NCBI GenBank assembly: GCA_037379345.1
Contig: CM074524.1
Location: 19,154,750 to 19,218,749 of the forward strand
Length of the DNA stretch: 64,000 nt
Source: Perna viridis
Lineage: Eukaryota
Reading direction: 5' to 3'
Part shown: in pieces, positions 3,574 to 57,040 of the stretch
Position numbering within the stretch: position 1 is the stretch's first letter
Layout of the letters: each line of letters opens with the position of its first letter
Program-made: the position numbers and the translations under genes
The notes under the pieces: generated by a model
Database searches by the model: none
What the model saw: only the letters and a program-made list of their open reading frames with translations
What the model was told of the DNA's origin: nothing

Positions 3574-3819
3574 ATCTGCACCATGAAAACTGATTTGTTC
3601 ATGGTGTCATAGTTTTCCCTTCCTCTTTTGTCTACCCTGAACTAGACTTTTTACAAGCAACTCAGCAGATGTTTCTAGAAAGCAGAGGATGCCTATCCTA
3701 CCGGTGCTCCTGGCAAATGCTCCCAGTTTTGTGTTTGTCTGTTTTCCATGTCTGGTCTTTGTCTCTGGATTACATTCCTTTAATTTCTACTATAATCTTG
3801 GTTCCCTTGGTTACTCTTT
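3574..3819 (+). mobile_element. Penelope-like family A 3' fragment with internal deletion
   Basis: RT C-terminus ICTMKTDLF plus 3'UTR; lacks the segment between cccagtttt and gtgtttgtctg; ends ttggttactcttt. Confidence 0.8.
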
Positions 3820-4208: not shown

Positions 4209-5046
4209 TTCATAAAGTACATTTTATTACAAATATACAATTATAAAAAAAGAAGTTTAAAAAAAAACACATATGTACAGGATGTGAACAGGCCTTCAAG
4301 GTCTAAAAAATTAGTCATTTGAAATACTTACTTTTTTTTGCAAGATTCAAATACTTGTTTGGGGGGGTGTGTGTGTGTGTGTTGGGGTGTTAGCCAACGA
4401 AAAAAAAGATGAATATTTATAATAAGTCATAATGATAATTAATAATATGAAGAAAAGTGATTTTTTCAGGGGAATAGTAAGAAATATGGGAAATAGAGGA
4501 CTGCTTGAAGGCCTGTGTACAATACAATTCCAAAATATAATTCCAAAACAAAAATATAAATTAAAATATATTTACAATAGAAAATTATAAATTCACCCTA
4601 TGACAGTCTGTCACAGATAATAATTCAAAGAGGTGTAAAACTGACTGTTACGTTTATTACAAGGGTAAAGCGAGGACAAAACACGAACTGATATGCTTCA
4701 GAATTCCCAGCCACCCCCAACCCACTGCTAAATTACTGCTGCATTCCAGGGGACCTTTCCAACCTACATGTATAGACAATATCACCAAAGCCTAGCTATC
4801 ACCAATTTCAAGAATTATGTCCCCTAACCTAGGTCTATCTCCTTAAATACGTACATAAAAAAGGTGGGTGCAGGCACTAAATGTGCAGCAATTCAAAATC
4901 TCATGGAAATTCTTTCATTTACACTTCATTTTTTCTACCAATGCCCCTGCATACAATGGCTGGTACAATAAATTCAACCCCCCGTCACCTTAGTTTGTTA
5001 TGCTAGTCTAGCTCCTACAGGTCAACTGTGCCTATGTAAACTTGTT

Positions 5047-5430
5047 CAGAAACTATGATTTTGGCTAGTAGGCTGATACAGAAACTAGGATTTAGGCTAG
5101 TAAGCTGATACAGAAACTATAATTTAGGCTAGTAGGCTGATACAGAAACTAGGATTTAGGCTAGTAGACTGATACACAAACTATAATTTAGGCTAGTAGG
5201 CTGATACAGAAACTAGGATTTAGGCTAGTAAGCTGATACAGAAACTATAATTTAGGCTAGTAGGCTGATACAGAAACTAAGATTTAGGCTAGTAGACTGA
5301 TACACAAACTATAATTTAGGCTAGTAGACTGATACACAAACTAGGATTTAGGCTAGTAAACTGATACAGGAACTATAATTTAGGCTAGTAGACTGATACA
5401 GAAACTATAATGTAGGCTAGTAGACTGATA
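5047..5430. repeat. Minisatellite, 32 bp x 12, with dimer/tetramer higher-order structure
   Basis: Consensus cagaaacta(ta/gg)atttaggctagta(gg/ga/ag)ctgata with exact 32-bp period from 5047. Confidence 0.95.
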
Positions 5431-6200
5431 AGGTACAATGTTAGAGTAAAGACTAACTGTTTTATCCGCTTTGACAGGATTGAAAAGTTAACTATGCATG
5501 TATGACTAAGCTTTTCTGCGGAGGGCAATTTTTCAAAGAAATAAAAAGATAATATTGAAATTGTTCATGGAACAGTACAAACACAAGTTAGCGAAGATTT
5601 TGCCTTAACTTTTGGCTCAATGCATTACATGTCAAAATTAAGAGATCCTATCATTGTCACATAAAATCCTATTATATAACTTATTCCAAAACTCATCTAC
5701 TTCCAACTTCAAGCCATAAAATTAAGATTTTGAGCAGATTTATTTGGATAAAGGGGTACACAACACATTGGGGAAATAACACTACGAGTTATTTTACATA
5801 GTGACATTCTGATATCAAACATAAAGCATCTTAGTGATCCAAAGTTTTTTTTTCCAAGTAGCTTTTACATGCTCATTGAAATTATTCCTATGAACCATGT
5901 GGTAAAAAGTTCTAGTTATTTGTAGCTTCTTTTATCAAAAATAAAGCACTGAATAAAATTTCAAGAAGTTTTATTTACTATACCGAAACAATAATTACAC
6001 TGGTACTAGGTTTTCATAATGCTGTCTGTATGTCTGTTTGAAATATGAATATTCATATGGAAGTTATAAATGCATTACTATCTAGGATTACTATCAATAA
6101 AACAAGAAAAACTGAGAAAGTCCCCTTCCCAACTTCAAATGGCCATCTCTGTAAAATTTTGCAGGATTATCTCCCTTTGGCATCATCCAACAGTAATTAT

Positions 6201-6346: not shown

Positions 6347-9196
6347 GAGGAAATTATGGGAGGATTTAAAACGTCAACGAATAAACTGTAAGTCAAGGAT
6401 GTCTTCCAAAAAAATTTATGTGCATGGCAGCGATAAGCCATTAACTGTTGCTGGTAGTTTTACTACAGATATGCATATAAATGACCATTCATTAAACGCT
6501 GAATTTTTTGTAATTGAGGAAAACGAACAGGCTTTGCTTGGACATAAGACAGCTGTACAGTTGGGTATTGTACAAATTCATCCCAATCAGGCCTTTACAT
6601 AAATTAATGCTGTACATGAGAATGACTTTAACGGGGCAATGGTCCACAAGTTTCCAAATGTTTTTCAGGGAATTGGAAAATTGAAGGATTTTCAGCTGAA
6701 AATTCCAATCAAAGAATCTGTATAACCAGTTATCCAGCCACTACATCGTGTGCCATACAATTTACGAAACAAATTAGACGAAAAACTAGTCGAGCTTGAG
6801 AAACTGGACATTATAGAGAAAGTCAAGACCAAGTAAACAGGTTTTGCCAATTGTTGTAGTACCAAAGAAAAATAACGAAATACGCATTTGCGTCGATATG
6901 CACCGTGCAAATACAGCAGTCATTCGTGAAAGGTACCCCATAGCAACTGTAGACGAGTTGTACATGGCTCATCTGAAGTAGAACACAAGCAAAATTTAGA
7001 AGCTGTGTCAAGTCACCTGCAGTCTGAAGGAATGACACTTAATGCAGACACATGCCACTTTAACATGGAGAAAATAGAATTTATGGGATACGTCTTATCA
7101 GAGCATGGAATTGGTGTGGTGGAAACCAAAGTACAGGCTATTCGTAATGCAAGAGTACCACAGTCTGTAGCTGAAGTCCGTAGTTTTTTTGGACTTGTGA
7201 ATTTTACAGGCCGATTTATTCCTAACATGGCAACCATTGCAGAACCGTTGACTCTTGCGTAAAGATCAGTCATTTGTCTGGAACAAGGACCAAAATGACG
7301 CGTTCAAGAAACTGAAAGACTGCCTAGCAAATGCATCAACTTTGGCTTACTTTGATGTGAATGCCAAGACTCAAGTTATAGCAGATGCCAGCCCAGTCGC
7401 TTTAGGATCTGTACAAGAACAACAAAGGAAAAACAGGATCATTAATTATGTAAGTAGGTCTCTCACGGACATAGAAAGGAGATATGCACAAACCAAGAAG
7501 GAAGCACTGAGCTTAGTATGGGCATGCAAAAGATTTCACATGTATCTGATGGGCAAGACTTTCGAACTTTTGACTGATAATAAGCCATTGAGTTTATCTT
7601 TTCGCCTAAGTCAAAACTGTGTGCCGGAGTGGAAAGATGGCTATTCCGAATGCAAAATTACAATTTTACTGTCAGACATATCCCTGGAAAAGAAAACATA
7701 GCAGATGAATTATCAAGAATGTTATCGCTTGAGAAATCAAACAAAACGTCTAATGACACCAAGGAGTACTTGCACATGATTGCAAATGAGGCTGCACCAG
7801 TAGCCATAAGAATCAGTGACATCGAGGAAGCCTCGATTGAGGATGACGATTTCAAGGACATTTGTCAGTGCCTTGTATCAGGAAAATGGTATACTTTGAA
7901 CAACAAGGACTATTTGACAGTTAAGTCAGAATTGAGTGCAGTTGGAAATTTAATTCTGCATGGAACATGAATCATTATACAGAAAGAATTGTGTCAACAG
8001 ATATTGGCACTTGGACATGAGTGGCATCCCGGTATAGTCGTCATGAAACAACGTTTGTGTTCAAAAGTTTGGTGGCCAAAAATAGACACCAATATCGAAC
8101 AGTGGTGTAAATCATGTTATGGCTGTCAAATGGTTTCACTGTCTGAGAAACCCGAACCGATGTGTAGGACAAAATTACCATCCCGTCCGTGGGAACATTT
8201 ATCAGCTGACTTTTTAGGACCATTACCGTCTAGTGATTATATTTTTGCACTAGTGGATTATTATTCCAGGTGGACTGAACTAGCTATACTCAGATCAATT
8301 ACTTCAGAGAAAGCAATTGAAACTATGAACAAGATATTCACAACACATGGACTCTCTATTTCTGTGACAACAGACAATGGACCCCAGTTCATTAGTGAAC
8401 AATTCAAACAGTACTGTAACAACAATGGAATTATGCACTGTTGTGGCCGCAAGCCAATGGTGAAATGGAAAGACGAAACCAATCGATATTGAAACGTCTA
8501 AGAATCGCAAGTTGAGAAGACTGGAAATCCGAAATTCAGATATATTTGTTGATGTACAAATCGACTCTGCATTCAACAACAGGAAAAAGCCCTGTGGAAC
8601 TTCTATTCGGTCGAACAATTAGAACCAAAATACTTGATATTCAGAAATACACTGATGATCATCATGAAATCCGTGACAAAGACACCGAGAAAAAAGAAAA
8701 GGAGAAAGTGTATGCTGACAGTAAACGTAGAGCTGCATCAAATGATATTACACCAGGAGATCGTGTGTTGATGAAGAGGAATAAAGAAAACAAGTTATCT
8801 GCGAATTATCATCCGAATCCGTTGAAAGTTCTGGAGAAAAATGGAAATAGTATTCTCTTAGAATCACAAGATGGTGTGCGTTACAAAAGGAATATCACTC
8901 ATGTGAAGAAATTTGTAGAATCGAAAGAAAGTTCAAATGTGTCAAATGAAAAATTAGTTGATGATTGTGAATATAAGCAAAATAAAAGTCAAAGTGTGTC
9001 AAATGAAAATTCAGTTGTATATGAAAATAATGTACCTAATGAGGAATTAGAAGCAAATAATGAAAATGTCGAAATCGAAAATTTTAGTGTTCAGGATAGC
9101 AACGATTCACAAAACGCGACCGAAACACCAGAAAGATCCAACCGTCCTATTAGACGAGTCATGCCGGCCAAGTTCAAGGACTACATTATGTCATAA
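6347..9196 (+). pseudogene. Gypsy pol remnant (protease C-half, partial RT, RNase H, integrase) with stops and frameshifts
   Basis: Motifs IRICVDMHRAN, IEFMGY, FFGLVNF (RT); ADASPVALG, ERRYAQTKKEAL (RNase H); GHEWHPG..WWP..CKSCYGC (IN zinc finger); DFLGP, VDYYSRW, TDNGPQF (DDE core). Split over several ORFs. Confidence 0.93.
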
Positions 9197-29326: not shown

Positions 29327-29538
29327 AAAGAGTAATCAAGGGAACCAAGGCTACAGCGGCAATCAAAAGAATGCAATCCAGGGACAAAGACCAGACATGG
29401 AAAACAGACATACACAACAAAGAACATAAAGCAACTAAAATCATACATACAAAGTAACAAAAGTAAATGAGCAACTCGGACTCCACTAAAAACTGGGAGC
29501 ATGGACCAGGTGCACCGGTAGGGTAAGCGTCCTCTGCT
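29327..29538 (-). mobile_element. Penelope-like family A 3' fragment
   Basis: aaagagtaatcaagggaaccaagg...gggtaagcgtcctctgct is the reverse complement of the family 3'UTR. Confidence 0.88.
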
Positions 29539-32500
29539 CAGAACTTGATAAGAGAAATTCGTTCTTTCAGTTTCCAAAGCATCATTATAATAAACAGAAA
29601 AGTCATACAAGAAAGTAGAAATACAGTTACTATCTGGATCCAGGAGGGGTTTTGAAATAAAAAAAAGTTATTCATGTCTTCAGCAAAGACAACTTAAATG
29701 AAATATGATAAGTTATTGGTAGCTCTACACAAACAGGTTTTATTTAAAATAAAGTATCAATCACTACAAAAAATACTTTATTTTGAATGCATTTGTCATT
29801 AACATGTTTATTATTTTTATTGAAGTATCTGAAAAATAAACTGCCGACGGGGAGTGTGGTCTGGCTCTACCAGACCAGGATAGGTTGTACCCCTTCCCTA
29901 GAGTGTGCATCCTCCACAATGGAGCTTAATACATGTATATAATTGTTGGTAAGAACATAGATATTAAATATATACCTGTGTCATTCTGTGAAAACAGATT
30001 TATGACCAATAAGTATGTAAGTCACAGTTACACCTTCAGTAACTTTCTTCAGGTTATATTCACGTGCATGTAACGTGAATGTGACAGAGTCTAGAAGTAG
30101 TTAAATATGATTATTATCCTTTGTACATATTGTTTTATAGTACAATATTTATTGTTTTATGGAGTTGTCATAGTTAATTCTTTTAAATCTGCAAATGACT
30201 CTTCTAATTGTAGATGATAGTTAAGTGCAAGATGTTTCTACTGGACATCCCGAAGGAGATGACGAGTGCCCTTGTCGGGATGGTATTCGGGATTATATCA
30301 TTGTTGGTTAGCATCAAAGTTAGAACCCACAGGAGGAGACTGATTTAGAGGAGGATGAGAATGGAGACTCCTATCTCCATGCGTCAACTTACTCTCGCCG
30401 CATCAACCCCTAACTTATCATACATGGTTTAGTGGTTGATGTATTGTGTAATAATGTGCATGTTTTAGGTTTTACTCATAGATACAAATCCCTGGTTTTA
30501 TGTTTCACTACTTGTATAAGTTATATTCCTACAATATTCATTTGAGAACATTATTTTTTTTATATTTTCAAAAAGGCTTTACTCATTATTTCTTAAGCTA
30601 TTTTATTTCTAAATTTCATTTCCCAGTATATTTAAAAGTCAACATTCAGCATTCAGAGTAACGTAAAACTGAAACATGCATATTCTTTCACAAATGTATC
30701 TTTTTAATTGTTTTGATTTGTCAGGTAGACTGTATTTTATGTATTTTTTTTATCATGACTGTGTATTTGTTTTTTATATGTATAACAGATCCCTCCAATA
30801 GTACATGTTGTAAAAAGTATGTCAAAGGTTTTATTCAAAAGACTATTTCTGTTATAAAAGGATTCTGCTACCCAGGTTTCTGACATGAATATATCATAAC
30901 ATTTCAGATTTTAGTACTTTTTAATATATTTCAAAAAAATTATGCAGCATTTTAGAATTAGATAAAACCTTCAACCTGCATATTTTCTTTACTAAGTTTA
31001 CTTTTCATTCTTCTTTTATATCTATTACACTCTATTTTTCTTATTTCTGTAACTGCTGCATGTGTTTTTATGCACATTTAATTATTTTATGCCTATCATT
31101 GTATTTATATTGAGGGAAAAAATGTATTTTTAAAGGTTCACCTATACTTTTGTTTCAATTAAAATGTCCACGAACACTTTTTTAAAAAGCATTTTATGGT
31201 TATTTACTGTAGAAATCTTACGTATACTTTAAATGTCAGTTATACATGAACAATCTATTGAAATACTCCTTTTTATGTAAAAATCCGCACTTTTACCTCA
31301 GAAATACATATTTCTGAATCAACTTTTATTGATTCTCATGTTTTTAATTATGTCTATGAGACTATGTTTTGGTACACACTTTTTATATACTGTTCATGTA
31401 TATTCATGTATATCCATGTTACAAGTGCGACTAATTTTAATAATGTTTTTTTTTTATATTTTAAGTCTGTTAGAATTTTGATTTTCACTGTTTATACAAT
31501 AGCTTATGAATTACTGTTTTAATTTTCGTCATCTCTTGTGTGTTGGGTATGACACCCTGTCATCTAATATGTAATGTTCGTTTGTTTGTTTGTTTTTTTT
31601 ATTATTTTAATGATTTCCTAACTGTCTCACAGTTTAACAGATCTATATGTATGTTCCTTTTTCATATGAATGTTTTGAGTCCTTTTTATTTAGTTTTAGT
31701 TCAAGACAAAAAGAGGTGGAACTTCTTGATACGATTCCTGCTGATAAACCATTCCAACATGCAACCATTTTTTCCCTTAAGTTTATTTTACTTATAATTC
31801 TGTAAGTTTAGTCAACACGATAAATATGCAGCAAAAATGTAATAAAGATGGTAGTTTGTTTTTAACATTGTTTCTCTTGTTTTTCATGGTTTCTTATATT
31901 AATTATCTCTCTCTTTTTTCTTAATTTTTACATGTTTTTCTTTAAAAAAAACCCTGTTTTTAATATCACTTATCGTTGAACATTGATACCGTTTATATTT
32001 TGTATACCGCTATGCTATATAAAGTTATCTGAAATATTTAATTTTGAAATATTCGTTCGTTATCCAGCTTTGGACAGTTTAGTAATGTTTTTTCACTATC
32101 ACTGAACTCTGAAACATGTTACGAAAGAAAGCTTGTATTAATAGCGACAACAACAAAACAAGATAAAACCGTTTAAAAATGACGATAACACTTCAAGTAC
32201 AGATGACAAAGAATTTATTGTAAAACTAAACAGAACGAAAACAGGTAACACAGAAAAAAACCCAGTGGGAACCCCTTGTAAAAAGGAGTCGAAAACACAG
32301 AAGTTTCTTTCCTCTTTGCAAGATAGCCACTGTGTCCAACAGTCGAATAACATGGGTATTTCCTGCTTATGCTTTCTATTTTTGATACTTAAAACCTGCA
32401 TTCCATTTCAACGTTTTCTTTCTACTTATACGATAGATTTGTGTTTGGACGATGTATTTTAAAAAGTACATTTGTAGTAGTAATATCAAATCCATAAATG

Positions 32501-32790: not shown

Positions 32791-33238
32791 AGAGAGTAAT
32801 CTAGGGAACCAAGGTTATAGCGGTAATTAAAAGAATGTAATCCTGGGACAAAGACTAGACATGGAAAACAGACACACACAACAAAGAACATAAAGTAGCT
32901 AAAATCATACATACAAAATAACAAAAGCAGATGGGCAACTCGAACTCCACTAAGAACTGGGAGCATGGACCAGGTGCACGGTAGGGTAAACGTCCTCTGC
33001 ATTTCTAGAAACACCCGCCGAGTTGCTCATAAAAAAGGCAAGTCCGGGGTAGACAAACGAAGAAAGGAAAACTATGACCCGTTGACTGAATCAGTTTTCA
33101 TGGTGCAGATGGATACACCATAAAGATCCACGAGTTCATGATGACGACCATAAAACTTCTGTAGTGATGACTTCAATCTTGTAGCAACATAACCCTGTTC
33201 CAGAAGCCTATTTGTTAGAGTTCTAGCGCGATACAAAA
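32791..33238 (-). mobile_element. Penelope-like family A, RT C-terminus plus 3'UTR
   Basis: LYRARTLTNRLLEQGYVATRLKSSLQKFYGRHHELVDLYGVSICTMKTD followed by the shared 3'UTR. Confidence 0.9.
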
Positions 33239-34847: not shown

Positions 34848-35119
34848 AACCAAGGACACCAAGGTTATAGCGGCATTCAAAAGAATGTAATCCAGGGACG
34901 ACACATGGAAAACAGACATACACAACAAAGAACTTGAAATAGCCAAAATCGTACATACAAAGTAACAAAAGCGAATGACCAACTCGGACTCCAATAAAAA
35001 CTAAAAGCATGGATCAGGTGCACCGGTAGGGTAAGCGTCCTCTGCCTTTCTAGAAACACCAGCCGAGCTGCTCATAAAAAGTCAAGTCCGGGGTAGACAA
35101 ACGTGTGGAAAGGAAAACT
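34848..35119 (-). mobile_element. Penelope-like family A 3'UTR fragment
   Basis: Same 3'UTR, including the stem-closed domain at about 34975-35075. Confidence 0.88.
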
Positions 35120-37111: not shown

Positions 37112-37737
37112 TATATTTTGACCTACACTTAGAAATCGATGTTAAAAGAAAGCCATTGACCAAACTTTACAACAAAAGTGATGACTTTTCATTCAGAATT
37201 GTCAATTTTCCTTTCATCTAGGGCAACATCCCTTCAGCACCTGCGTATGGAGTGTTCATATCACAACTCATACGTTATGCCAGAGTATGCCGCAGACTTT
37301 TTTTATCGCGCTAGAATTCTAACAAATAGGCTTATGGAATAGGATTATGTTGCTACAAAATTGAAGTCATCACTACACACGTTTTATGATCGTCATCATG
37401 GACTCGTTGCTTGCTACGGTGTATCCATCTGCGCCATTAAAACTGATTTGTTCAATGTGTCATAGTTTTCCTTTCCTCTTTTGTCTACCCCGGGCTTGAC
37501 TTTTTATGAACAACTCGGCGGGTGTTTACAGAAAAGCAGAGGACGCTTACCGTACCCGTGCACCTGTTCCATGCTCCCAGTTTTTAGTGGAGTCCGAGTT
37601 GCTCATTTGCTTTTGCTATTTTGCACGTATGGTTTTAGTTACTTTATATTCTTTGTTGTGTATGCCTGTTTTTCATGTCTGGTCTTTGTCCGTGGATTAC
37701 ATTCTTTTGATTACCACTATAACCTTGATTACTCTTT
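37112..37737 (+). mobile_element. Penelope-like family A, longest plus-strand copy
   Basis: DLHLEID..TKLYNKSDDFSFRIVNFPFI*GNIPSAPAYGVFISQLIRYAR, an RT thumb/C-terminal motif, then stop and 3'UTR with no C-terminal GIY-YIG. Confidence 0.92.
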
Positions 37738-41927: not shown

Positions 41928-44107
41928 AATGAGTTGCACTTATGAGGTTTCAACACATAAATCATCCCTGAAATTTGTTTAAATATATTTGAAGTCACAT
42001 TTCTTCACGAACATCTTCATTTGATGTCCAACCATAACTTCAAGAAATATTACATACGAATTCCGGAAACGGTTAAGGAGTAGTTGCTTTAACAGTCACT
42101 GTGAATTGACGAACGGACTAACGGGAAGACAAACAAGCACGGTTATTCATACATACCACCAAACTTTGCTTCGAGGGGAAGTTTGATGAAATGGATACAT
42201 GTATTAGAATATTGCCTTTCAATAATATTTGGGCACTATTTGATACTACGTAAAACAAACGCTGATTCGCTAACTCTGTTGACATGCTTGTTCAATATAT
42301 AGGATTTTGGTTCTGTTGTTAATTAATTTGTATCGTATTGTGTCTTTCTTTTTTCTTTAACTATAATCAAAGATGCAAGTAATATTATTTTTACCTTTCA
42401 TTTGCAAAAATTAATGCAAGAATGCGGTTATTAAAAAATTACTTACGCTATGTCAAATTCTGTTGCGCTTTAAAAAAATAAATAAATGTTAAATGTTAAT
42501 AAGTAAAAAGTCTATGAGTTGATCATATCAAAATATGCCAAATGTACTCATCCCTACTAGAATTACCAAAAAAGCATTGTAGTTATAACAAGAAATGAAC
42601 AAAGAGTAAGATTTATCAAACGACCCTTTAATCAGATATGGTAGCGGTTTCTTAATACAGCAGTGTTGTATAAAGAGTATAAAAGTCATAACTATCTATT
42701 GAATCATAGGACTCTTGAAAGATATGAAGCTGATTTATTACTTCAAATGAATATTTGATACTCCAAAAAATAGTTAACACCATTATATTCTTAACATTTA
42801 TCGCAATAATTTATAACAAAGTTTTTAAAAATAGTTAAAGTAGAAGTTAATAATACATCAGTATTAGAACATTTCTTTGAAGATGAAATAAAACGTAATT
42901 TGAACGACTTTTCATGAAGTTTTTGTGTCCAGTATAGAGTCCGCGCAGTCATATGATCGGTGTAAATACACAAAAAGCAGCAGATTTATAATAATCCAGT
43001 TAAAAAAGTACATTGAAAATTTTATCATTTATATTGAGAAACAGTAAAATATTTAGTTTAATGAGTTGAACTTATGAGGTTTCAACACATAAATCATCCC
43101 TGAAATTTGTTTAAATATATTTGAAGTCACATTTCTTCACGAACATCTTCATTTGATGTCCAACCATAACTTCAAGAAATATTACATACGAATTCCGGAA
43201 ACGGTTAAGGTGTAGTTGCTCTAACAGTCACTGTGAATTGACGAACGGACGGACTAACGGGAAGACAAACAAGCACGGTTATTCTTACTTACCACCAAAC
43301 TTTGTTTCGAGGGGAAGTTTGATGAAATGGATACATGTATTATAATATTGCCTTTCAATAATATTTGGGCACTATTTGATACTATGTAAAACTCTGTTGA
43401 CATGCTTGTTCAATATATAGGATTTTGGTTCTGTTGTTAATTAATTTGTATCGTATTGTGTCTTTCTTTTTTCTTTAACTATAATCAAAGATGCAAGTAA
43501 TATTATTTTTACCTTTCATTTGCAAAAATTAATGCAAGAATGCGGTTATTAAAAAATTACTTACGCTATCTCAAATTCTGTTGCGCTTTAAAAAAATAAA
43601 TAAATGTTAAATGTTAATATGTAAAAAGTCTATGAGTTGATCATATCAAAATATGCCAAATGTACTCATCCCTACTAGAATTACCAAAAAAGCATTGTAG
43701 TTATAACAAGAAATGAACGAAGAGTAAGATTTATCAAGCGACCCTTTAATCAGATATGATAGCGTTTTCTTACTACAGCAGTGTTGTATAAAGAGTATAA
43801 AAGTCATAATTATCTATTGAATCATAGGACTCTTGAAAGATATGAAGCTGATTTATTACTTCAAATGAATATTTGATACTCCAAAAAATAGTTAACACCA
43901 TTATATTCTTAACATTTATCGCAATAATTTATAACAAAGTTTTTAAAAATAGTTAAAATAGAAGTTAATAATTCACCAGTATTAGAACATTTCTTTGAAG
44001 ATGAAATAAAACGTAATTTGAACGACTTTTCATGAAGTTTTTGTGTCCAGCATAGAGTCCGCGCAGTCATATGATCGGTGTAAATACAAAAAAAGCAGCA
44101 GATTTAT
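41928..44107. repeat. Recent near-tandem duplication of ~1.05 kb (41928-42989 and 43060-44107)
   Basis: Both copies start aatgagttg(c/a)acttatgaggtttcaacac and end aaaaagcagcagatttat; few substitutions, one ~18-bp and one 4-bp indel; ~70-bp spacer. Confidence 0.93.
42530..42990 (-). mobile_element. Penelope-like (Naiad-type) RT N-terminal fragment, duplicated copy
   Basis: LYWTQKLHEKSFKLRFISSSKKCS..NYCDK..GVNYFWSIK..SYDFYTLYT, resembling LYWxPKLHK..RFI..DFSTLYT of PLE RTs. Confidence 0.8.
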
Positions 44108-44520
44108 GATGTCCACTTCTGTATAATATTTACGTCATAGTATAACCAATTTGTTAGCTGCTTTATCCACCGGGCCAAAATTCTTTTCTAGCCTTTTTTT
44201 TTTTTGGATAGTTTTTCTCTTCTTATAGAGATGCGTGTCGAACGATACTTAATACTTTTCGTGATGTTTAATCATTTAATCAACAATGATAATAAGCGTA
44301 TTTTTGAAATTCTCCAGGGTGTTTTTTCTGCTTTTCCCTTTCGAATCCATTGCTTGCAAACATCATTAAATGAATCTTCTATGGTTTTGCGACACTCCTT
44401 CCAGTCAATTTTAACTGGAGGACGATATTTGTGTTCTGTTTTTCAAATTTGATATTAATCGGTTTTCAACGATATTTAAGTTCTGTAATAATATGACCAC
44501 TGGATGCATACTAAAACGTA
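43650..44520 (-). mobile_element. Penelope-like (Naiad-type) linker and RT N-terminal fragment
   Basis: YASSGHIIT..IDWKECRKTIEDS..PVDKAANK..LY/CWTQKLHEK..YDFYTLYT, degenerate. Confidence 0.8.
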
Positions 44521-45239
44521 AAGAGAACGGGCCCTATTGTTCATAATGAATGAATAAACGCATACGATTATCACATAAAGGGCTATTTTTAGGGATCATC
44601 ATTTTCCTCAGACTATAGCGAAGGCTGTAAACAAGCAATGGGCGACACGAGTATGTAGTTTACTATAATTGTTATTGAAAAGATCACATGTAATCATTTT
44701 TTTTTCATTATAAAAACAACTTTTTAAAACGTTTATATATGTTGCAAAAGCGAAAGACACCATCAAATTGAAGGTAAAACATAACATAATCATACACAAC
44801 AAAATGAAGCGCACTTCCGCATTGCATGTCCAGACAAACTTCGAACAACTACGTCCTTTTGCAGGTCCGAATCTAACTTGCTTTATCTTATATTAAATGC
44901 TTCAAATGATAACTCCCATTAGTTTGAAGAGCACAATTTATATGGATATCAACTATAAAAGAGCATATGAGTTTGTGTCTGATAAATTTCTTCCAGAAAA
45001 AGTATGTGTCAAAATCTTGACCATCATATTTCATTTGGTGATACATACATAATACAAAAGAAAAAAGGCAAAAATAAAAACATAAAAACATAAACGGTAA
45101 GAAACAAAGACATATTGTTGAACCAAATGAAATAATAAAAGATAATAAGCTGTTTACGTTTTTGAATAATTTTGACTGAAGTATATAAGTCGCAGTCATC
45201 CACTGTGCTTATGGTAGTAATATTACGTCAATATGTAAG

Positions 45240-46270
45240 TCACTAATTTTCTCATGGAAATCAAAAGTGCTCGAACTCATACATTTTGCAAGAATAAGAT
45301 ATTTTTAAGGAACATTGACTCAAATAAATGTGTCACAGCCACCGACATGATAGTTATATTGAAAAATATAAACACTTTAGTCATTAATTTTAGACCCTAA
45401 TTGAAATTAAAAGTGTTTGCACTCATACATTTTGCAAGAATATGACATTTTTAAAGAATTTTGACTCAAATTAATATGTGGCAACCCCTATATGACAATT
45501 ATAGTGAAATATTAAGCATTTTAGTCATTAATGTTAGACCCTCATGGAAATTGAAAGTGTTCGCACTCATACATTTTGCGAGAATATGATATTTTTATAG
45601 AATTTTGGCTCAAAATGATGTGTCGCAGACACCATATGATATTTATTTTGAATAATTTAGCATTTTAGTCATAAATTTTAGACCCTCATGGAAATAAAAA
45701 CTGCTTGCACTTATACATTTTGGAAGAATATGACATTTTAAAAGAATTTTGGCTCAAATTAATCTGTCCCAGCCCCGATATGATAGTTATATTGACAAAA
45801 CTAGCATTTCAGTCATTAATTTTAGACCCTCATAGAAATTAAAAGTGTGGGCAATCATACATATGATGGAATATGACATTTTTAAAGAATTTTGAAAGAA
45901 ATATATGTGTCACAGTCACCCACTTGATAGTTATATTGAAAAAAAAGTATTTTAGTCAATAGTTTTAGACCATTATGAAAAATAAAACTGCTGGCACTCA
46001 TACATTTTGCATAACTATTAGAATTTTTACTTGAATACATGTGAGACAGTCACTAATATGAAACTATACATTTTTAATTTCTACATTTTCTACATATAAG
46101 ACCATATAGGTAAATTGGAAGTGTTCACACTCATATTCGTTGCTGAAAGTGGTATTTTGAAGAATTTTGACCGAAATATATAGGTATCAGTCACCCATTT
46201 AATGCTGCAATTGTCAATTCTAACATTTTTTTAGAATTATTTGTGACCCTTATGTTATTAAAGGTAAATT
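45240..46270. repeat. Satellite-like array, ~145-bp unit x ~7
   Basis: Anchor (c)actcatacattttgc near 45275, 45420, 45565, 45708, 45852 and 45996, more decayed near 46128; also tttagaccctcatggaaat. Confidence 0.9.
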
Positions 46271-46905: not shown

Positions 46906-47724
46906 TCTCACATAATTTAAGAGAGATTAGAAGTGATCGCAACTGTAGTTATACTTTCTTTGCAAAGTTTGAAACCGTGAATGTGGAAACAAGTAGCGTT
47001 TTTCTATATCATTTTCAATGGAACACTAGAAATAATCCATGTATGCAACGCTTTATGATTTATATAATTAATTAATACAAGCTTCAATTTTAACAATATT
47101 CCACCGTTATACTTACCTAAAGGCGATATGATTAGGCGGTTCCTCTGTGCTACAAAACAAAAAAGATTTCTGTTCAAATCATAAACATACAATCTTTATA
47201 TACGTTGATATACATTACAAAATAAGTAGGTCATTCAAATTGTATAACCACTACGTTTGTGTTTGTTAGTTCAACTTATTGAATAACGATTTCAATTCTA
47301 TTCCTATTTGTCTTTAGCGAACACGAATGAATTCGAAAGATCATCTGAAAACATTGAATACAAGTTTATTATAAAAATATAATAACATTATCATGATCTA
47401 TAATTTTCAATTGTTTTACGACTATTCCCAGCTACAAAAAACATTACACATCGGTGTTACTCTAAAAAGATAGAAAACCTAGATTCAAATAAGTGGTACT
47501 TGGTAGAAAGTATTCATAATTTATACAAATTAAGGCAGTTCCAAATCATTTTCTAAATATACCATAGAAGAAGATGTTGTTAAAATACTGAAATATCTGA
47601 TCGAAAACATAAATTACATTTGTCCTATGTGGTAGTCGAGTTTGTCGACAGACGGACGGCATTCAAAACGGAATTAATTGTGCTCCACCCACTACTCGCT
47701 GTGCTGATCTATTAATTTAATAAT

Positions 47725-48160
47725 ATAAGGCTAACTTTATAGCTGATCTCATCCAAAAGAAGGAACATCGTTTGTTTAATTGTTTTCTGCTCAATAGATG
47801 ACGTGTTGTCTTCAATTAATTAGTTCAAGAATTTTATTGACCGCATCTTTTCTAAACAAACTTAAGATAAGGAACACTTTAGACAAAAAGTGTCCGGTCT
47901 CGTAAATTGAGCTACTTTAAGAGATTAATCATTATGGAAAAGGAAAATTATACGACGGTGACGCAATGACTCCTCGTTTATTAGTGTGACAGTTCCTTGT
48001 ATCTGTACCAACCTACTTTCCGCACCTGTGCATGGAATTTCTCATATCATAACTCCATAATACGTGATGCCAGAGCTTGCCAATCATTATTCACTACGCA
48101 GAATTTTTGTATCGTGCTAGACCTCTTATAATTAAGCTTCTGAAATATGGATATGCCATT
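47725..48160 (+). mobile_element. Older, decayed Penelope-like RT fragment (catalytic DD to thumb)
   Basis: ANFIADLIQKKEHRL..SIDDVLS..FIDRIF..SAPVHGI..ARA..EFLYRARPL..KLLKYGY. Confidence 0.75.
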
Positions 48161-48308
48161 ATGGTTGTTTCTGTTTGTTTTTTTTACGTATGCGTCTTTT
48201 TTTACTCTCTTGTCTTCATCATTGGATTATATTATTTTATAAATTTTAAATATTCTTTTAATAAACATTTGCACACATTTGATGGCACAAGAAAGTTTAT
48301 ATTGTTTT

Positions 48309-48908
48309 AAAGAGTAATCAAGGGAACCAAGGTTATAGCGGCTATCAAAAGAATGCAATCCAGAGACAAAGACCAGACATGGAAAACAGACATACACAAC
48401 AAAGAACATAAAGTAACTAAAATCATACATACAAAAGTAACAAAAGCAAATGAGCAACTCGGACTCCACTAAAAACTGGGAGCATGGACCAGGTGCACCG
48501 GTAGGGTAAGCGTCCTCTGCTTTTCTAGAAACACTCGCCGAGTTGCTCATAAAAAGTCAAGTCCGGGGTTGATGAACGAGGAAAGGAAAATATGATCCGT
48601 TGAATAAATCAGTCTTCATGATGCAGATGGCTACACCATAACGATCCACAAGTTCATGATGACGACCATAAAACTTCTGTAGTGATGACTTCAATCTTGT
48701 AGCAACATAACCCTGTTCCAGAAGCCTATTTGTTAGAGTTTTAGCGCGATATAAAAGTCTGCGTAGTTTCGGCAAGCTCGGGCATAACGTATGAGTTGTG
48801 ATATGAACACTCCATACGCAGATGCTGAAGGGATGTTGTCACAGATGACAGGAGACTTGACAATTTTGAATAAAAAGTCACCACGTTTGTCGTAAAGTTT
48901 GGTCAATA
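48309..48908 (-). mobile_element. Penelope-like family A, best-preserved copy
   Basis: LLTKLYDKRGDFLFKIVKSPVICDNIPSASAYGVFISQLIRYARACRNYADF / LYRAKTLTNRLLEQGY..KFYGRHHELVDRY, plus the complete 3'UTR. Confidence 0.93.
48450..48550 (-). ncRNA. Candidate cis-acting structured RNA domain in the PLE 3'UTR
   Basis: atgagcaactcgg (48450-48462) and ccgagttgctcat (48538-48550) are exact 13-bp reverse complements enclosing 75 nt with further potential helices. Confidence 0.5.
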
Positions 48909-50269
48909 ATGAGTATATGGACATTGTTTTGTTTCTATGTACGCATGTATATGTGTCAAATAAATATTATTACATAATATTATCAAAGGATTACAAGTGA
49001 CTCCCTTTATTAAAATTCAAAACATTCAATGGTTGCCACGATGAATTTTATATGCTTTTCGTAGTATTCATCATAAAGACAGTTGATGTACTTCTCATTA
49101 TATACTTTCAAACCTATTAACTTGTAAAATGTTTACTATGTTAGCAATACTCTCCTTTTCCAGAAGGAAAGAAACGGAATATAATTTGATTCATTTAAAC
49201 TAGTAAAGCTGCTATTATTTTAGCAATATTTTTAATTTGTACAAATATTCCTCGTAAAATGTCCTTAACATAAGGGGACACAAAAATATATACACATCAG
49301 AAATGCCATAAAACAGTGACAATACAAATTTTAATATCAACAATATCAATGTCCTATACGCGTTCACCAAGTAATACACTGACGACTGGATTTTCTAGAT
49401 TAGAATAAAAATTGTTCCTATTTGTAGACTATGAACAATTATATTTTTTCATAAGGAGAAATATATTAAGTTTCGATCGACTGTTTTTACTTAAACATTT
49501 TTCTCATCATATCTTTTCTTACCTTTGTTCCTGCTTTCCCACTCTTTTTTCCAGTTCCCTGTACCTTTGAAGCAATAAATATCATTTATGAATAATATTA
49601 GTACGACTTACTCATCTAAAGACAAAAGAAAGCAACTCAAAGAAACCGACGAATTAGAAAAAAATAGGGCAGGAGCAATTAATACCAGACACAGTACAAA
49701 ACAGATAAATGAAAAGTGCCGGAAAGTAAATGCAAAAGAAGTTTGATTTGTATAATTTTATTACAAATTTACCGGGTACCATATTAGAATGGCACGATAG
49801 AAAAATACTTTTGTTGGGTTTTGAAATGTAATGACTTCTTACTCAGTTTGTAATCGCTTAGTACAAATCTACACAATCTAAAATACATGACTCATAAATG
49901 TCCAATAATATAATGCAAAAATACGCTACGTGTAGGTCAATTGTTTATGTTCCTAGATTGTGTTGGTTTGATTTCCTTTAGATTCTAACATCTCATCATG
50001 TTATTGTCTTGCTTAAATTATTATTTCTATTGGAGATAAATATAATACAAGTAATGATTTGTTTTTTATTTGTGAGCAGCGAGCTAAAGACTGGTCAGTA
50101 TAACCATTTCACCTTGTTTTGAAATATCCCACACACAAAAGATAATTGTTTATAGAAAAACGGAAAAAAACCTTTGTATTGTCCGAACTCAACAATCATT
50201 TATTAACTGGATGAACGTCATGATGTGATTGATCATCATGATATAGATATAATAAGTGTGGTGCCGACG

Positions 50270-50680
50270 TTGATACAGTTGACCCAAAATGAACAAAGTT
50301 TTTGGGGATTAGGTCTGGCAAAACTCTTTACAATAAATGACAAAAGCAGCTATTACGAGTAACATGTGATCGGTATGCTAATGATTCTGTTTGACAATAA
50401 ATTTGTCACTTTTGGGAATAGTCCCTCGGAACAAAGTATCGGCATTCCTAAGGGCACTAAGTGTACCCTTCTACTAGCCAATGTGTTCCTTGCGCAAGTC
50501 ATGACAGATAAAGGGGCTTGATCCTGTAATGCCACTTAATGATATATTGGTAATGTTCTCTTCAATAATCATCCTAAATTTCTAAATTTCTAAATGTCTC
50601 TCATTGCCTTGGAGACAGGCTTTTAGACCAAGGATATGAAGATGCGTCTCATAAGCAGCCTTAAACTTTATTTCCGATTT
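50270..50680 (+). mobile_element. Decayed Penelope-like RT fragment (different family)
   Basis: LFDNKFVTFGNS..EQSIGIPKGTKCTLLLANVFL resembles LIDNIFV.FG...QQ..GIPMGTNCAPLLADLFL; RLLDQGY downstream. Confidence 0.75.
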
Positions 50681-55626: not shown

Positions 55627-57040
55627 AAGCATAAGCATAAAGCAAAAGCATAGAAGATTTATTTAAACTTGGTTTTACATATAACAATACAACATAAGCT
55701 CTGTAGAGCTTTTATCAGACATACATATATGACAAGCACAATACACAGAACACATAAAACAGTAAGCACATCATGCAAAGAATAAATAATGTTTTTAAGC
55801 ACAGCAGTTTGTAAGCAAATTTAAAACATATAAAGCAAACTTAAAATTCAGATAAACTAACATTCATGCAATAGCTATTATATAAAGCACTAAAAGTAAT
55901 TCAAGCATTTAAAACACAAATGAAAAGTTATGCATCAAAATATAAAAGCCAGAGTATACAAGATAAATAAATAAATTAATAAATGATCTACAACTCACTG
56001 AGATCTGCATTAGGAACACTGACACGAACAGCCCTCCCAATTACCAACCAAACTTTTAAACTGACCCAAAGGCATTTCGTCGCTCATCTCATTCGGCATT
56101 TCGTTCCAGAGTTTGGCTCTTGCATATCTGAAAGAGTGTAGGCCGTGGGTAGGTGTCCTTACCCTGGGAACATCTGCTATGTTGTTATTTCTAAAAGAAT
56201 AATTACTTTTTTTAATTTCAATAAGTTCATGTAGATATAATGGACACTGTTTATTATAATTTTATACACCTCTATTGCTATCATTCTAATTCTTCTGATT
56301 TTTAAACTTTTGATTTAATCAACAGTTGTTGATAAGAACTACAATAGTCTTCATATATAAATCTTAGGGCATTAAACTTAAGATGATAGTCAATTGTTAC
56401 AACAAGTAATTTCACTTCTTTTTCACAGTGTATGATATTACCATCTAGATTAAAAGAAATATTTTTATGTTCAGTTTTCTTGCTAATGGCTATTTCCTGA
56501 AACTTGTCAGGGTTGGCCTTCATATGATGTAAACTAAACCAGTTAATTAGCTCTAAGCTTTCTTTTTCTAAAATATTTACAACAGTGTCTATATCAGAAT
56601 GTGAATAAGATAAAGTATTGTCATCTGCATAATTATACAATGAACTGCTTGTTACAAAATGAAAAATATCATTCAAGAAAATATTAAGAAGTATGGGTCC
56701 TATTATAGAGCCTTGCGGTACACCTTTATATATATCTTTCCAGGTACTTATATTTATACCAACGTTTACGCATTGTTTTCTTTTACTTAAATAGTTGTCT
56801 ATTAAGCTTAAAGCTGATTCATATAATCCATATGCCTTTAGTTTTCAAGTTAATAAATCATAAGGAAGGCAGTCAAAGGCTTTCGAGAGGTCCATCAACA
56901 CAGCAGCAATGTATTGATTATCATCAATAGCCTTCTTCCAATCCTCAATGATTTTCGAAAGTGCTGTCCATCAGCCGTATCCTGCTCTATAGGCAGACAA
57001 ATATGGGTAATAAAATATTTTGAAAAAATCAACTAGCTGT
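55627..57040 (-). mobile_element. 5'-truncated CR1/L2-group LINE (ORF2 RT pseudogene plus 3'UTR)
   Basis: SAYRAGYG..AVLMDLSKAFDCLP..KLKAYG..GVPQGSIIGP..LNDI..YADDNTL..MKANPDKFQ; C-terminal CSCQC; 3' hairpin aagctct-gt-agagctt (~55696-55711), AATAAA and (TTATGC)n-like tail; internal deletion near 56375. Confidence 0.93.

Follow-up and report, generated by a model that had tools for sequence, protein, structure and literature searches.

Naiads are Penelope-like elements (PLEs) diagnosed by a CxC linker, a DKA motif, an IFD insert and a GIY-YIG domain placed ahead of the reverse transcriptase (RT) (Craig et al. 2021, PMC8557442). They are reported to carry no canonical hammerheads, which has been taken as a sign that PLE ribozymes may be dispensable passengers (PMC8557442). 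PLE hammerheads lie in the pLTR; their helix III is palindromic, as dimers they cleave weakly, and their cleavage followed by circularisation has been proposed to explain tandem insertions (PMC4209133, PMC6765202). The single PLE assayed in vitro inserts without hammerhead cleavage, which itself needs the protein; its reverse transcription starts internally, and no RNA-seq ends occur at the cut site (PMC11167929). Few natural RNAs act as homodimers (PMC7357161). The locus described here combines a known host element with an RNA fold that is real and, in the literature searched, undescribed, and whose likely role resembles that of the PLE hammerheads.

The conserved RNA domain occupies 48450-48550 on the minus (sense) strand of the window (the whole 64-kb stretch of DNA analysed) and starts about 40 nt past the last RT codon (48593), in agreement with a preliminary description of this DNA. 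It belongs to a 5'-truncated Naiad PLE copy (48309..48908, minus strand; 93% to genomic copy L044) consisting of the RT C-terminus and the 3'UTR. The RT part is a broken remnant of the last ~105 codons (48593..48909, minus strand; tblastn 83-89% to the L041 ORF). The window contains eight fragments of the Naiad 3' end: the whole domain is present in four and part of it in two, and two further fragments begin within its closing helix. The other full copies lie at 37506..37609 (plus strand), 34972..35075 (minus) and 32930..33030 (minus), close to where they had been announced (37506-37606, ~34975-35075 and ~32931-33030). The partial copies are truncated at the 5' side just past the palindrome PAL1 (29463..29539, minus) or decayed with an internal deletion (3658..3742, plus). 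Remnants of older Naiad RTs (36-40% identity) were also noticed at 47466-47795 and 50345-50581 on the plus strand, and at 42773-42940 and 43891-44058 on the minus strand.

The assignment to Naiad, which the preliminary description had made, held up in the longer copies. The N-terminal GIY-YIG, the CxC and the DKA occur in the long copies L041-L045, with DCSC, PADKA and an IFD insert after motif A in L041-L044. In the L045 and L042 translations, a GIY-YIG region and a CxxxxCxxC finger were seen by eye N-terminal to the RT, and this N-terminus resembles the Naiad-1_Pfla protein of the published supplement. Besides GIY-YIG, CxC and DKA, our element shares with the described Naiads an ORF whose last part is the RT, 5' truncation, pLTRs in partial tandems, a very high copy number and the lack of a canonical hammerhead (PMC8557442). 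Its RT is close to those of bivalve Naiads, which suggests that the host is likely a bivalve. We sampled the genome at even intervals in 60 pieces of 10 kb, of which 590 kb could be read; 39 matches there span the core, which extrapolates to ~48,000 copies per genome, and a sequence-only model gave 50 matches in these samples. Pfam matched 0/3 Naiad proteins, and a search for RT relatives in viral contigs found none.

The strands of the domain follow one another in the order P1, A5', PAL1, RCAG, B5', GCUYAC, PAL2, A3', B3', hairpin C and P1 (all coordinates in this paragraph are on the minus strand). The closing helix P1 (5' strand, 48538..48550; 3' strand, 48450..48462) has 13 bp here, perfectly paired as previously claimed, and 5-13 bp in other families. 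Stem A is formed by 48532..48537 and by CACCUG at 48490..48495; it is near-invariant, with a conserved G-U pair, and its 5' strand reads CGGGUG in most copies and CGAGUG here, a G-to-A change from the majority form (CGGGTG in 47/69 own-genome copies). PAL1 (48522..48531) is a 10-nt loopless palindrome, UUUCUAGAAA, predicted to form an intermolecular helix. It is followed by the conserved single strand RGCAG (48517..48521), of which CAG is invariant in the alignment A4 presented below, and by the 5' strand of stem B (48512..48516). All five pairs of stem B covary (98.7% paired), and its 3' strand (48485..48489) adjoins the 3' strand of stem A without a gap; since stem B crosses stem A, the two form a pseudoknot. 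A second conserved single strand, GCUYAC with a pyrimidine linker (48503..48511), is a candidate catalytic or protein-binding core. PAL2 (48497..48502), a 6-nt loopless palindrome, reads ACCGGU here and UCCGGA or UCGCGA elsewhere. Hairpin C (48463..48483) has 5 bp here, and 5-9 bp with loops of 3-20 nt in 11 other families. No linker separates P1 from hairpin C in 11/12 families, whereas our own family has one additional letter before hairpin C.

This fold retains part of the preliminary one. The CGGGUGU/GCACCUG helix proposed there survives as the stem CGGGUG/CACCUG, and the GCUCC/GGAGU hairpin as hairpin C, both being kept across families. The AAGC/GCUU hairpin finds no support: its four columns show no compensated double change, one of them being unpaired in 3/12 families and another in 2/12. 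P1, stem A and hairpin C thus stand from the proposed multi-way junction, but not the plain junction itself, which gives way to the pseudoknot stem B and the two palindromes, absent from the earlier fold.

The folding z-score was -3.76 for the 48450-48550 copy (0/200 shuffles), and -2.20, -1.12 and -1.63 for the other three full copies. As the reverse strand scored -3.51, folding energy alone does not identify the strand. Because minimum-energy prediction on single copies can represent neither pseudoknots nor dimers, the inner folds that it gave were inconsistent.

We rely on comparison between families. RT relatives were gathered blind to the RNA: metagenome contigs supplied the best 80 of 361, and genome contigs another 28. 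Of these 108, 91 had at least 150 nt downstream and formed 53 clusters. The 108 include 28 Naiad loci from prokaryote genome assemblies (L127-L154), several of them from invertebrate symbionts, which are likely host DNA contamination. Sequence-only anchors detected the domain in 24/91 loci and 13 clusters, or 12 after removal of L152, a false anchor match (RT 27%, only 2/5 and 1/5 pairs). Hence, among the best 80 of 361 metagenome and the 28 genome relatives, the domain stands behind the RT in 12/53 clusters, at 52-70% identity. L152 was removed from the cluster tally and is still within the anchor-based pair counts, which take in all 24 anchor loci: 111/120 pairs were formed in PAL1, 113/120 in stem B and 66/72 in PAL2. 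When PAL2 was read in three registers, 24, 66 and 44 of the 72 pairs were found.

Alignment A4 comprises 15 rows, our own copy and 14 hand-picked from 27, decayed and near-duplicate rows being omitted. In these rows 98.9% of the cells were paired versus 78.6% after shuffling, slid registers paired at 33-47%, double changes occurred in 12/19 pairs and 0/500 shuffles matched any measure, a count that is not a probability since the rows share kinship. For the same reason, we place the weight on the following lines of evidence. First, in the cross-family control the domain's own halves paired at 0.92-0.95 versus 0.57-0.58 with foreign halves. Second, PAL1 has 12 distinct sequences in 12 families. 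Within A4, 5/5 pairs of PAL1 were altered on both sides while remaining 100% paired, 2/3 pairs of PAL2 were altered on both sides, and stem A, near-invariant and with G-U, showed double changes in 0/6 pairs. Together, the covariation supports the closing helix, the pseudoknot of stems A and B, hairpin C and the two loopless palindromes.

One could suppose that the domain has no function as RNA, being inherited sequence or a set of DNA-level palindromes used by an endonuclease; both strands do fold comparably, and copies within one genome share ancestry. Covariation already largely refutes this reading, which we regard as having next to no chance: changes are compensated across families at 52-70% RT identity, G-U pairs are retained on the sense strand only, and a pseudoknot is present. 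Furthermore, a structure-only descriptor retrieved 21/91 real regions (3 of them chance-like) versus 4/455 shuffles and 2/91 antisense regions.

The domain is also present in at least 12/54 published Naiad consensi, as judged by eye. These are hydrozoan (Chem-1 and Chem-2, which are Clytia by their headers), bivalve (CGi, Sglo, Olur, Tgra and Pmar), hemichordate (Skow-1, Skow-2, Pfla-1 and Pfla-2) and fish (Cmel), Skow-1 and Cmel being assigned from the file order in the published supplement. The invariant unpaired letters are kept from hydrozoan to fish, and PAL2 is likewise palindromic with changed letters (CCUAGG, CCAUGG, UGGCCA; by eye). The partial text of the paper that released these consensi reports SECIS elements and hammerhead core fragments in Naiad UTRs, not this domain (PMC8557442). 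Nor was a description of the domain found in the literature we searched, mostly non-subscription full texts available in part (including 10.64898/2026.07.22.740005, PMC10085705, PMC11662667 and PMC7357161).

Although their letters change, both palindromes remain self-complementary, an indication of an RNA dimer. PAL1 has six distinct central tetramers, all self-complementary (about 1e-5 if independent). A tetraloop hairpin would free the middle four letters, yet all six middles can pair with themselves, which favours the dimer. The self-duplex of PAL1 was computed at -9 to -18 kcal/mol and that of PAL2 at -7 to -9 kcal/mol, the hairpin energies being ~0. Covariation and duplex energies together predict dimer formation, and the comparative support for the pseudoknot and the predicted dimer is strong. 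The two palindromes are located in the pLTR, as is demanded of the palindrome in minimal PLE hammerheads.

The core of telomerase RNA is a pseudoknot inside a closing helix, an arrangement also observed here, and the domain might accordingly be a monomeric pseudoknot serving RT recognition or template positioning, with the palindromes as tiny hairpins. The sister relationship of PLE RTs and telomerase RT (PMC8557442) would suit this proposal. We consider it unlikely: it leaves the self-complementary PAL1 centres and the loopless PAL2 unexplained, and a telomerase RNA core, with its RT-bound template next to the pseudoknot, was rejected because the cDNA would start ~140 nt away and Rfam returned no telomerase match.

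We compared the predicted dimer with the known RNA classes. Rfam gave 0 gathering-threshold matches in the 64-kb window and two noise snoRNA matches, both off the domain. In the hammerhead, the CUGANGA and GAAA cores flank stem II; the first core, or both, occurred in 0/12 families, and Rfam was silent. The SECIS pattern (AUGA/GA quartet and AA loop at 10-13 nt) also fitted 0/12, so that the preliminary description was right in seeing neither element. The compensated changes across divergent families, together with the lack of any Rfam or SECIS match to the domain, leave its claim of a conserved structure standing. The domain resembles PLE hammerheads in its position in the element, its predicted palindrome-driven dimer in a tandem transcript and its proposed role in cleavage and circularisation. 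It differs from them by lacking the CUGANGA/GAAA core, by its two palindromes instead of one and by its pseudoknot, and its cleavage is only predicted. Like the SECIS of clam and spider Naiads, it is a structured RNA immediately past the RT stop; unlike the domain, SECIS elements were detected by Rfam after the RT of further Naiad lineages, in L085:1987-2048, L134:3608-3670 and L142:1060-1123. A weak one was seen in L099:3095-3159, a locus that seemingly has SECIS and twister together.

Hatchet and Varkud satellite form strand-swapped RNA homodimers of the kind predicted here, hatchet through a palindrome, but the hatchet palindrome is 4 nt long, not strictly conserved and dispensable (PMC7357161), and the domain has no Rfam match. 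In HIV-1 DIS, a six-nt palindrome drives RNA dimers in a retroelement (PMC7357161), as is predicted here, but from a hairpin loop in the 5' leader, whereas the domain has loopless palindromes in a 3'UTR pseudoknot with invariant unpaired letters.

A known ribozyme (HDV-like, twister or hatchet) could have been rearranged so as to be overlooked by covariance models. The HDV fold is a nested double pseudoknot in the order P1-P2-P3-L3-P1.1-P4-J4/2 whose P1 begins with a conserved G-U, and the conserved G-U opening stem A recalls that pair. Rfam also missed the permuted Naiad twisters described below at E<=0.05, with one 15-bit partial match only, so that its silence is weak evidence where permuted forms are concerned; this bears on hatchet, pistol, twister sister, hairpin, VS and glmS, for which Rfam returned no match. 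When the HDV, hammerhead, twister and hatchet layouts were mapped by eye, none fitted. HDV-like forms were rejected because B3' comes directly after A3' and before the hairpin, the L3 pattern was found in 1/12 families and Rfam gave no match. Twisters are marked by a conserved L4, the T1/T2 pseudoknots and a U-A cleavage junction; twister descriptors matched 0 motif clusters, and the loose L4 pattern occurred in 3/12 families at no shared place. Given these counts, the hammerhead core in 0/12, and a strand order unlike that of HDV and that of twister (the latter in PMC5408937), we hold a rearranged known ribozyme to be very unlikely.

As a further comparison, we examined what other Naiads carry in the same slot. 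Among the best 80 of 361 metagenome and the 28 genome relatives, the twister L4 signature was present in 6/91 loci and the full type-P5 descriptor in 4/91, with 0 antisense matches for each. All four full-descriptor matches have two palindromes replacing P1 (L099:3370-3440, L101:2173-2245, L102:1554-1625 and L126:2426-2500), and further 3'UTRs of this type were found in L055, L062, L128 and L130, T1 covarying across the set. In total, 5/53 RT clusters bear a type-P5-like twister, none of them together with the domain, and 36/53 have neither, many such UTRs being broken or incomplete; the slot, therefore, need not hold a ribozyme. The twister design with two palindromes also appears by eye in the published Mgal, Bpla, Mphi, Scon, Mmer and Movir-1 consensi, and a printed description of these Naiad twisters was sought in the literature and not found. 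The domain shares with them the slot, the pseudoknot and the placing of two palindromes within a helix, between its strands, but it lacks the conserved L4 and the U-A cleavage junction, and its conserved letters and strand order are others. Since twister remains active without P1 (PMC5408937), the palindromes may be a dimer module apart from catalysis, serving the element.

A quick RT tree, which omits L076, L120 and L154 (too short) and in which L102 was labelled before its twister was recognised, explains the distribution of the motif with 2 changes and that of the twister with 3; one twister clade was nested among motif lineages (unstarred support 93-94). On this tree the motif may have had a single origin. 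Decayed twister-like stretches with upstream palindromes were noticed in two of our own genome samples (L188 and L205), which suggests that this genome likely also holds a twister-bearing Naiad family. Reversed-order hammerhead cores (GAAA before CUGAUGA), type-II-like, were seen by eye in the L111 and L113 3'UTRs, where our own descriptor did not score them, as well as in the published Bfor, Acropora and octopus consensi.

The ends of the element bear on what the domain does. A fixed 3' end, likely the cDNA start, lies ~140 nt past the domain (48307..48313, minus strand). Counted from stem A, the element 3' ends are concentrated between +225 and +231, a point reached by 61/93 matches and with which loose ends in assembled contigs coincide. 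Upstream, 28/30 element starts (the best 30 of 651 candidates) seamlessly adjoin a pLTR. The starts of 24 independent pLTRs fall upstream of an intact domain in 15 cases, as far as -806 (~800 nt into the ORF), inside it at differing places in 3 and downstream of it in 6. The 15 upstream starts cannot come from a linear RNA that was cut within the domain; a circle, a jump from one terminal repeat to the other or read-through of tandem copies can produce them. A cut-site footprint was sought in the insertion 5' ends and pLTR starts, and none was found; in truncated copies, the 5' ends do not peak within it (13/45 at risk versus 10/32 and 10/55 in the flanking bins). The missing peak neither shows nor excludes cleavage, given that the PLE tested in vitro initiates internally and inserts without hammerhead cleavage. 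The preliminary description had offered an uncharacterised RT-recognition or 3'-processing element, or a non-canonical ribozyme. The uncharacterised conserved structure stands and the ribozyme perhaps; 3'-processing finds no support, as the element ends ~140 nt downstream and no 5'-end peak falls in the domain. As a separate observation, four element starts ~5.1 kb apart with an identical pLTR start (L241-L244) form a tandem array amplified after insertion.

By analogy with the PLE hammerheads, we propose, at about an even chance of being right, that the pseudoknotted domain of the Naiad 3'UTR/pLTR cleaves itself as a dimer and thus represents a ribozyme class not yet described, catalysis being the likeliest role suggested by the comparisons. 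Transcription from the upstream pLTR through to the downstream UTR would give an RNA with two copies of the domain, PAL1 pairing with PAL1 and PAL2 with PAL2. The conserved strand formed by CAG, B5' and GCUYAC of one copy would overlie the stem A of its partner, in a strand-swapped dimer with two sites, each of which would cut once. The unit-length RNA would then be ligated into a circle, on which the Naiad EN/RT would begin the cDNA ~140 nt downstream of the domain and copy round beyond its start, thereby generating the pLTR. Seamless pLTRs of scattered length are what a circular template would give, and they are also explained by strand transfer or tandem read-through. In favour of the ribozyme we count the covariation, the invariant unpaired letters, the seamless pLTRs and the parallel with PLE hammerheads, which occupy the same pLTR slot as palindrome dimers, and with the twisters that fill this slot in other Naiads; against it, the 0/6 double changes in stem A, the lack of a 5'-end peak in the domain, the 36/53 clusters with neither motif and the insertion of the tested PLE without cleavage.

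The same palindromes could instead operate without catalysis, in dimer linkage or strand transfer. They would hold the two terminal repeats together within a single RNA, or link two separate RNAs, while the core binds the Naiad protein; the RT would then switch from the 5' end onto the 3' repeat and so build the pLTR, on the model of the retroviral dimer-initiation palindromes that hold two genomes together. Such palindromic signals are known in retroviruses (PMC7357161), and the palindromes with their covariation, as well as the lack of a cut-site footprint, agree with this proposal. So does the recurrence of two palindromes in Naiad twisters, where twister catalysis can spare them, and so do the predicted dimer of the PLE protein and the uncut RNA that was its main substrate in vitro (PMC11167929). 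However, a protein-binding core should not be missing from twister-bearing RT clusters as close as 51-57%, and the protein of the tested PLE needs the RNA around the cDNA start (PMC11167929), here 140 nt away. We therefore view dimer linkage as a tentative alternative, possible and less probable than the ribozyme.

The presence of a conserved fold, predicted to form dimers, in the hammerhead slot, alternating with twisters, argues that this slot matters. The natural classes of small self-cleaving RNAs known number only about ten; if the domain is self-cleaving, it would be a new kind of RNA enzyme. Even without catalysis, it would define a new RNA family of eukaryotes and provide a non-viral retroelement with a dimerisation signal. 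The way in which PLEs build their pLTRs (circle, strand transfer or read-through) becomes testable on a 100-nt RNA.

Several other features were noticed in the window. An integrase frame (rve and H2C2) of an LTR-type element lies at 7971-8489 (plus strand), and an RVT_1 frame at 56305-56844 (minus strand). A 1.1-kb tandem duplication (96%) spans 41928-44110, a decayed ~145-bp tandem array 45156-46169, and a 64-bp tandem array 5036-5439.
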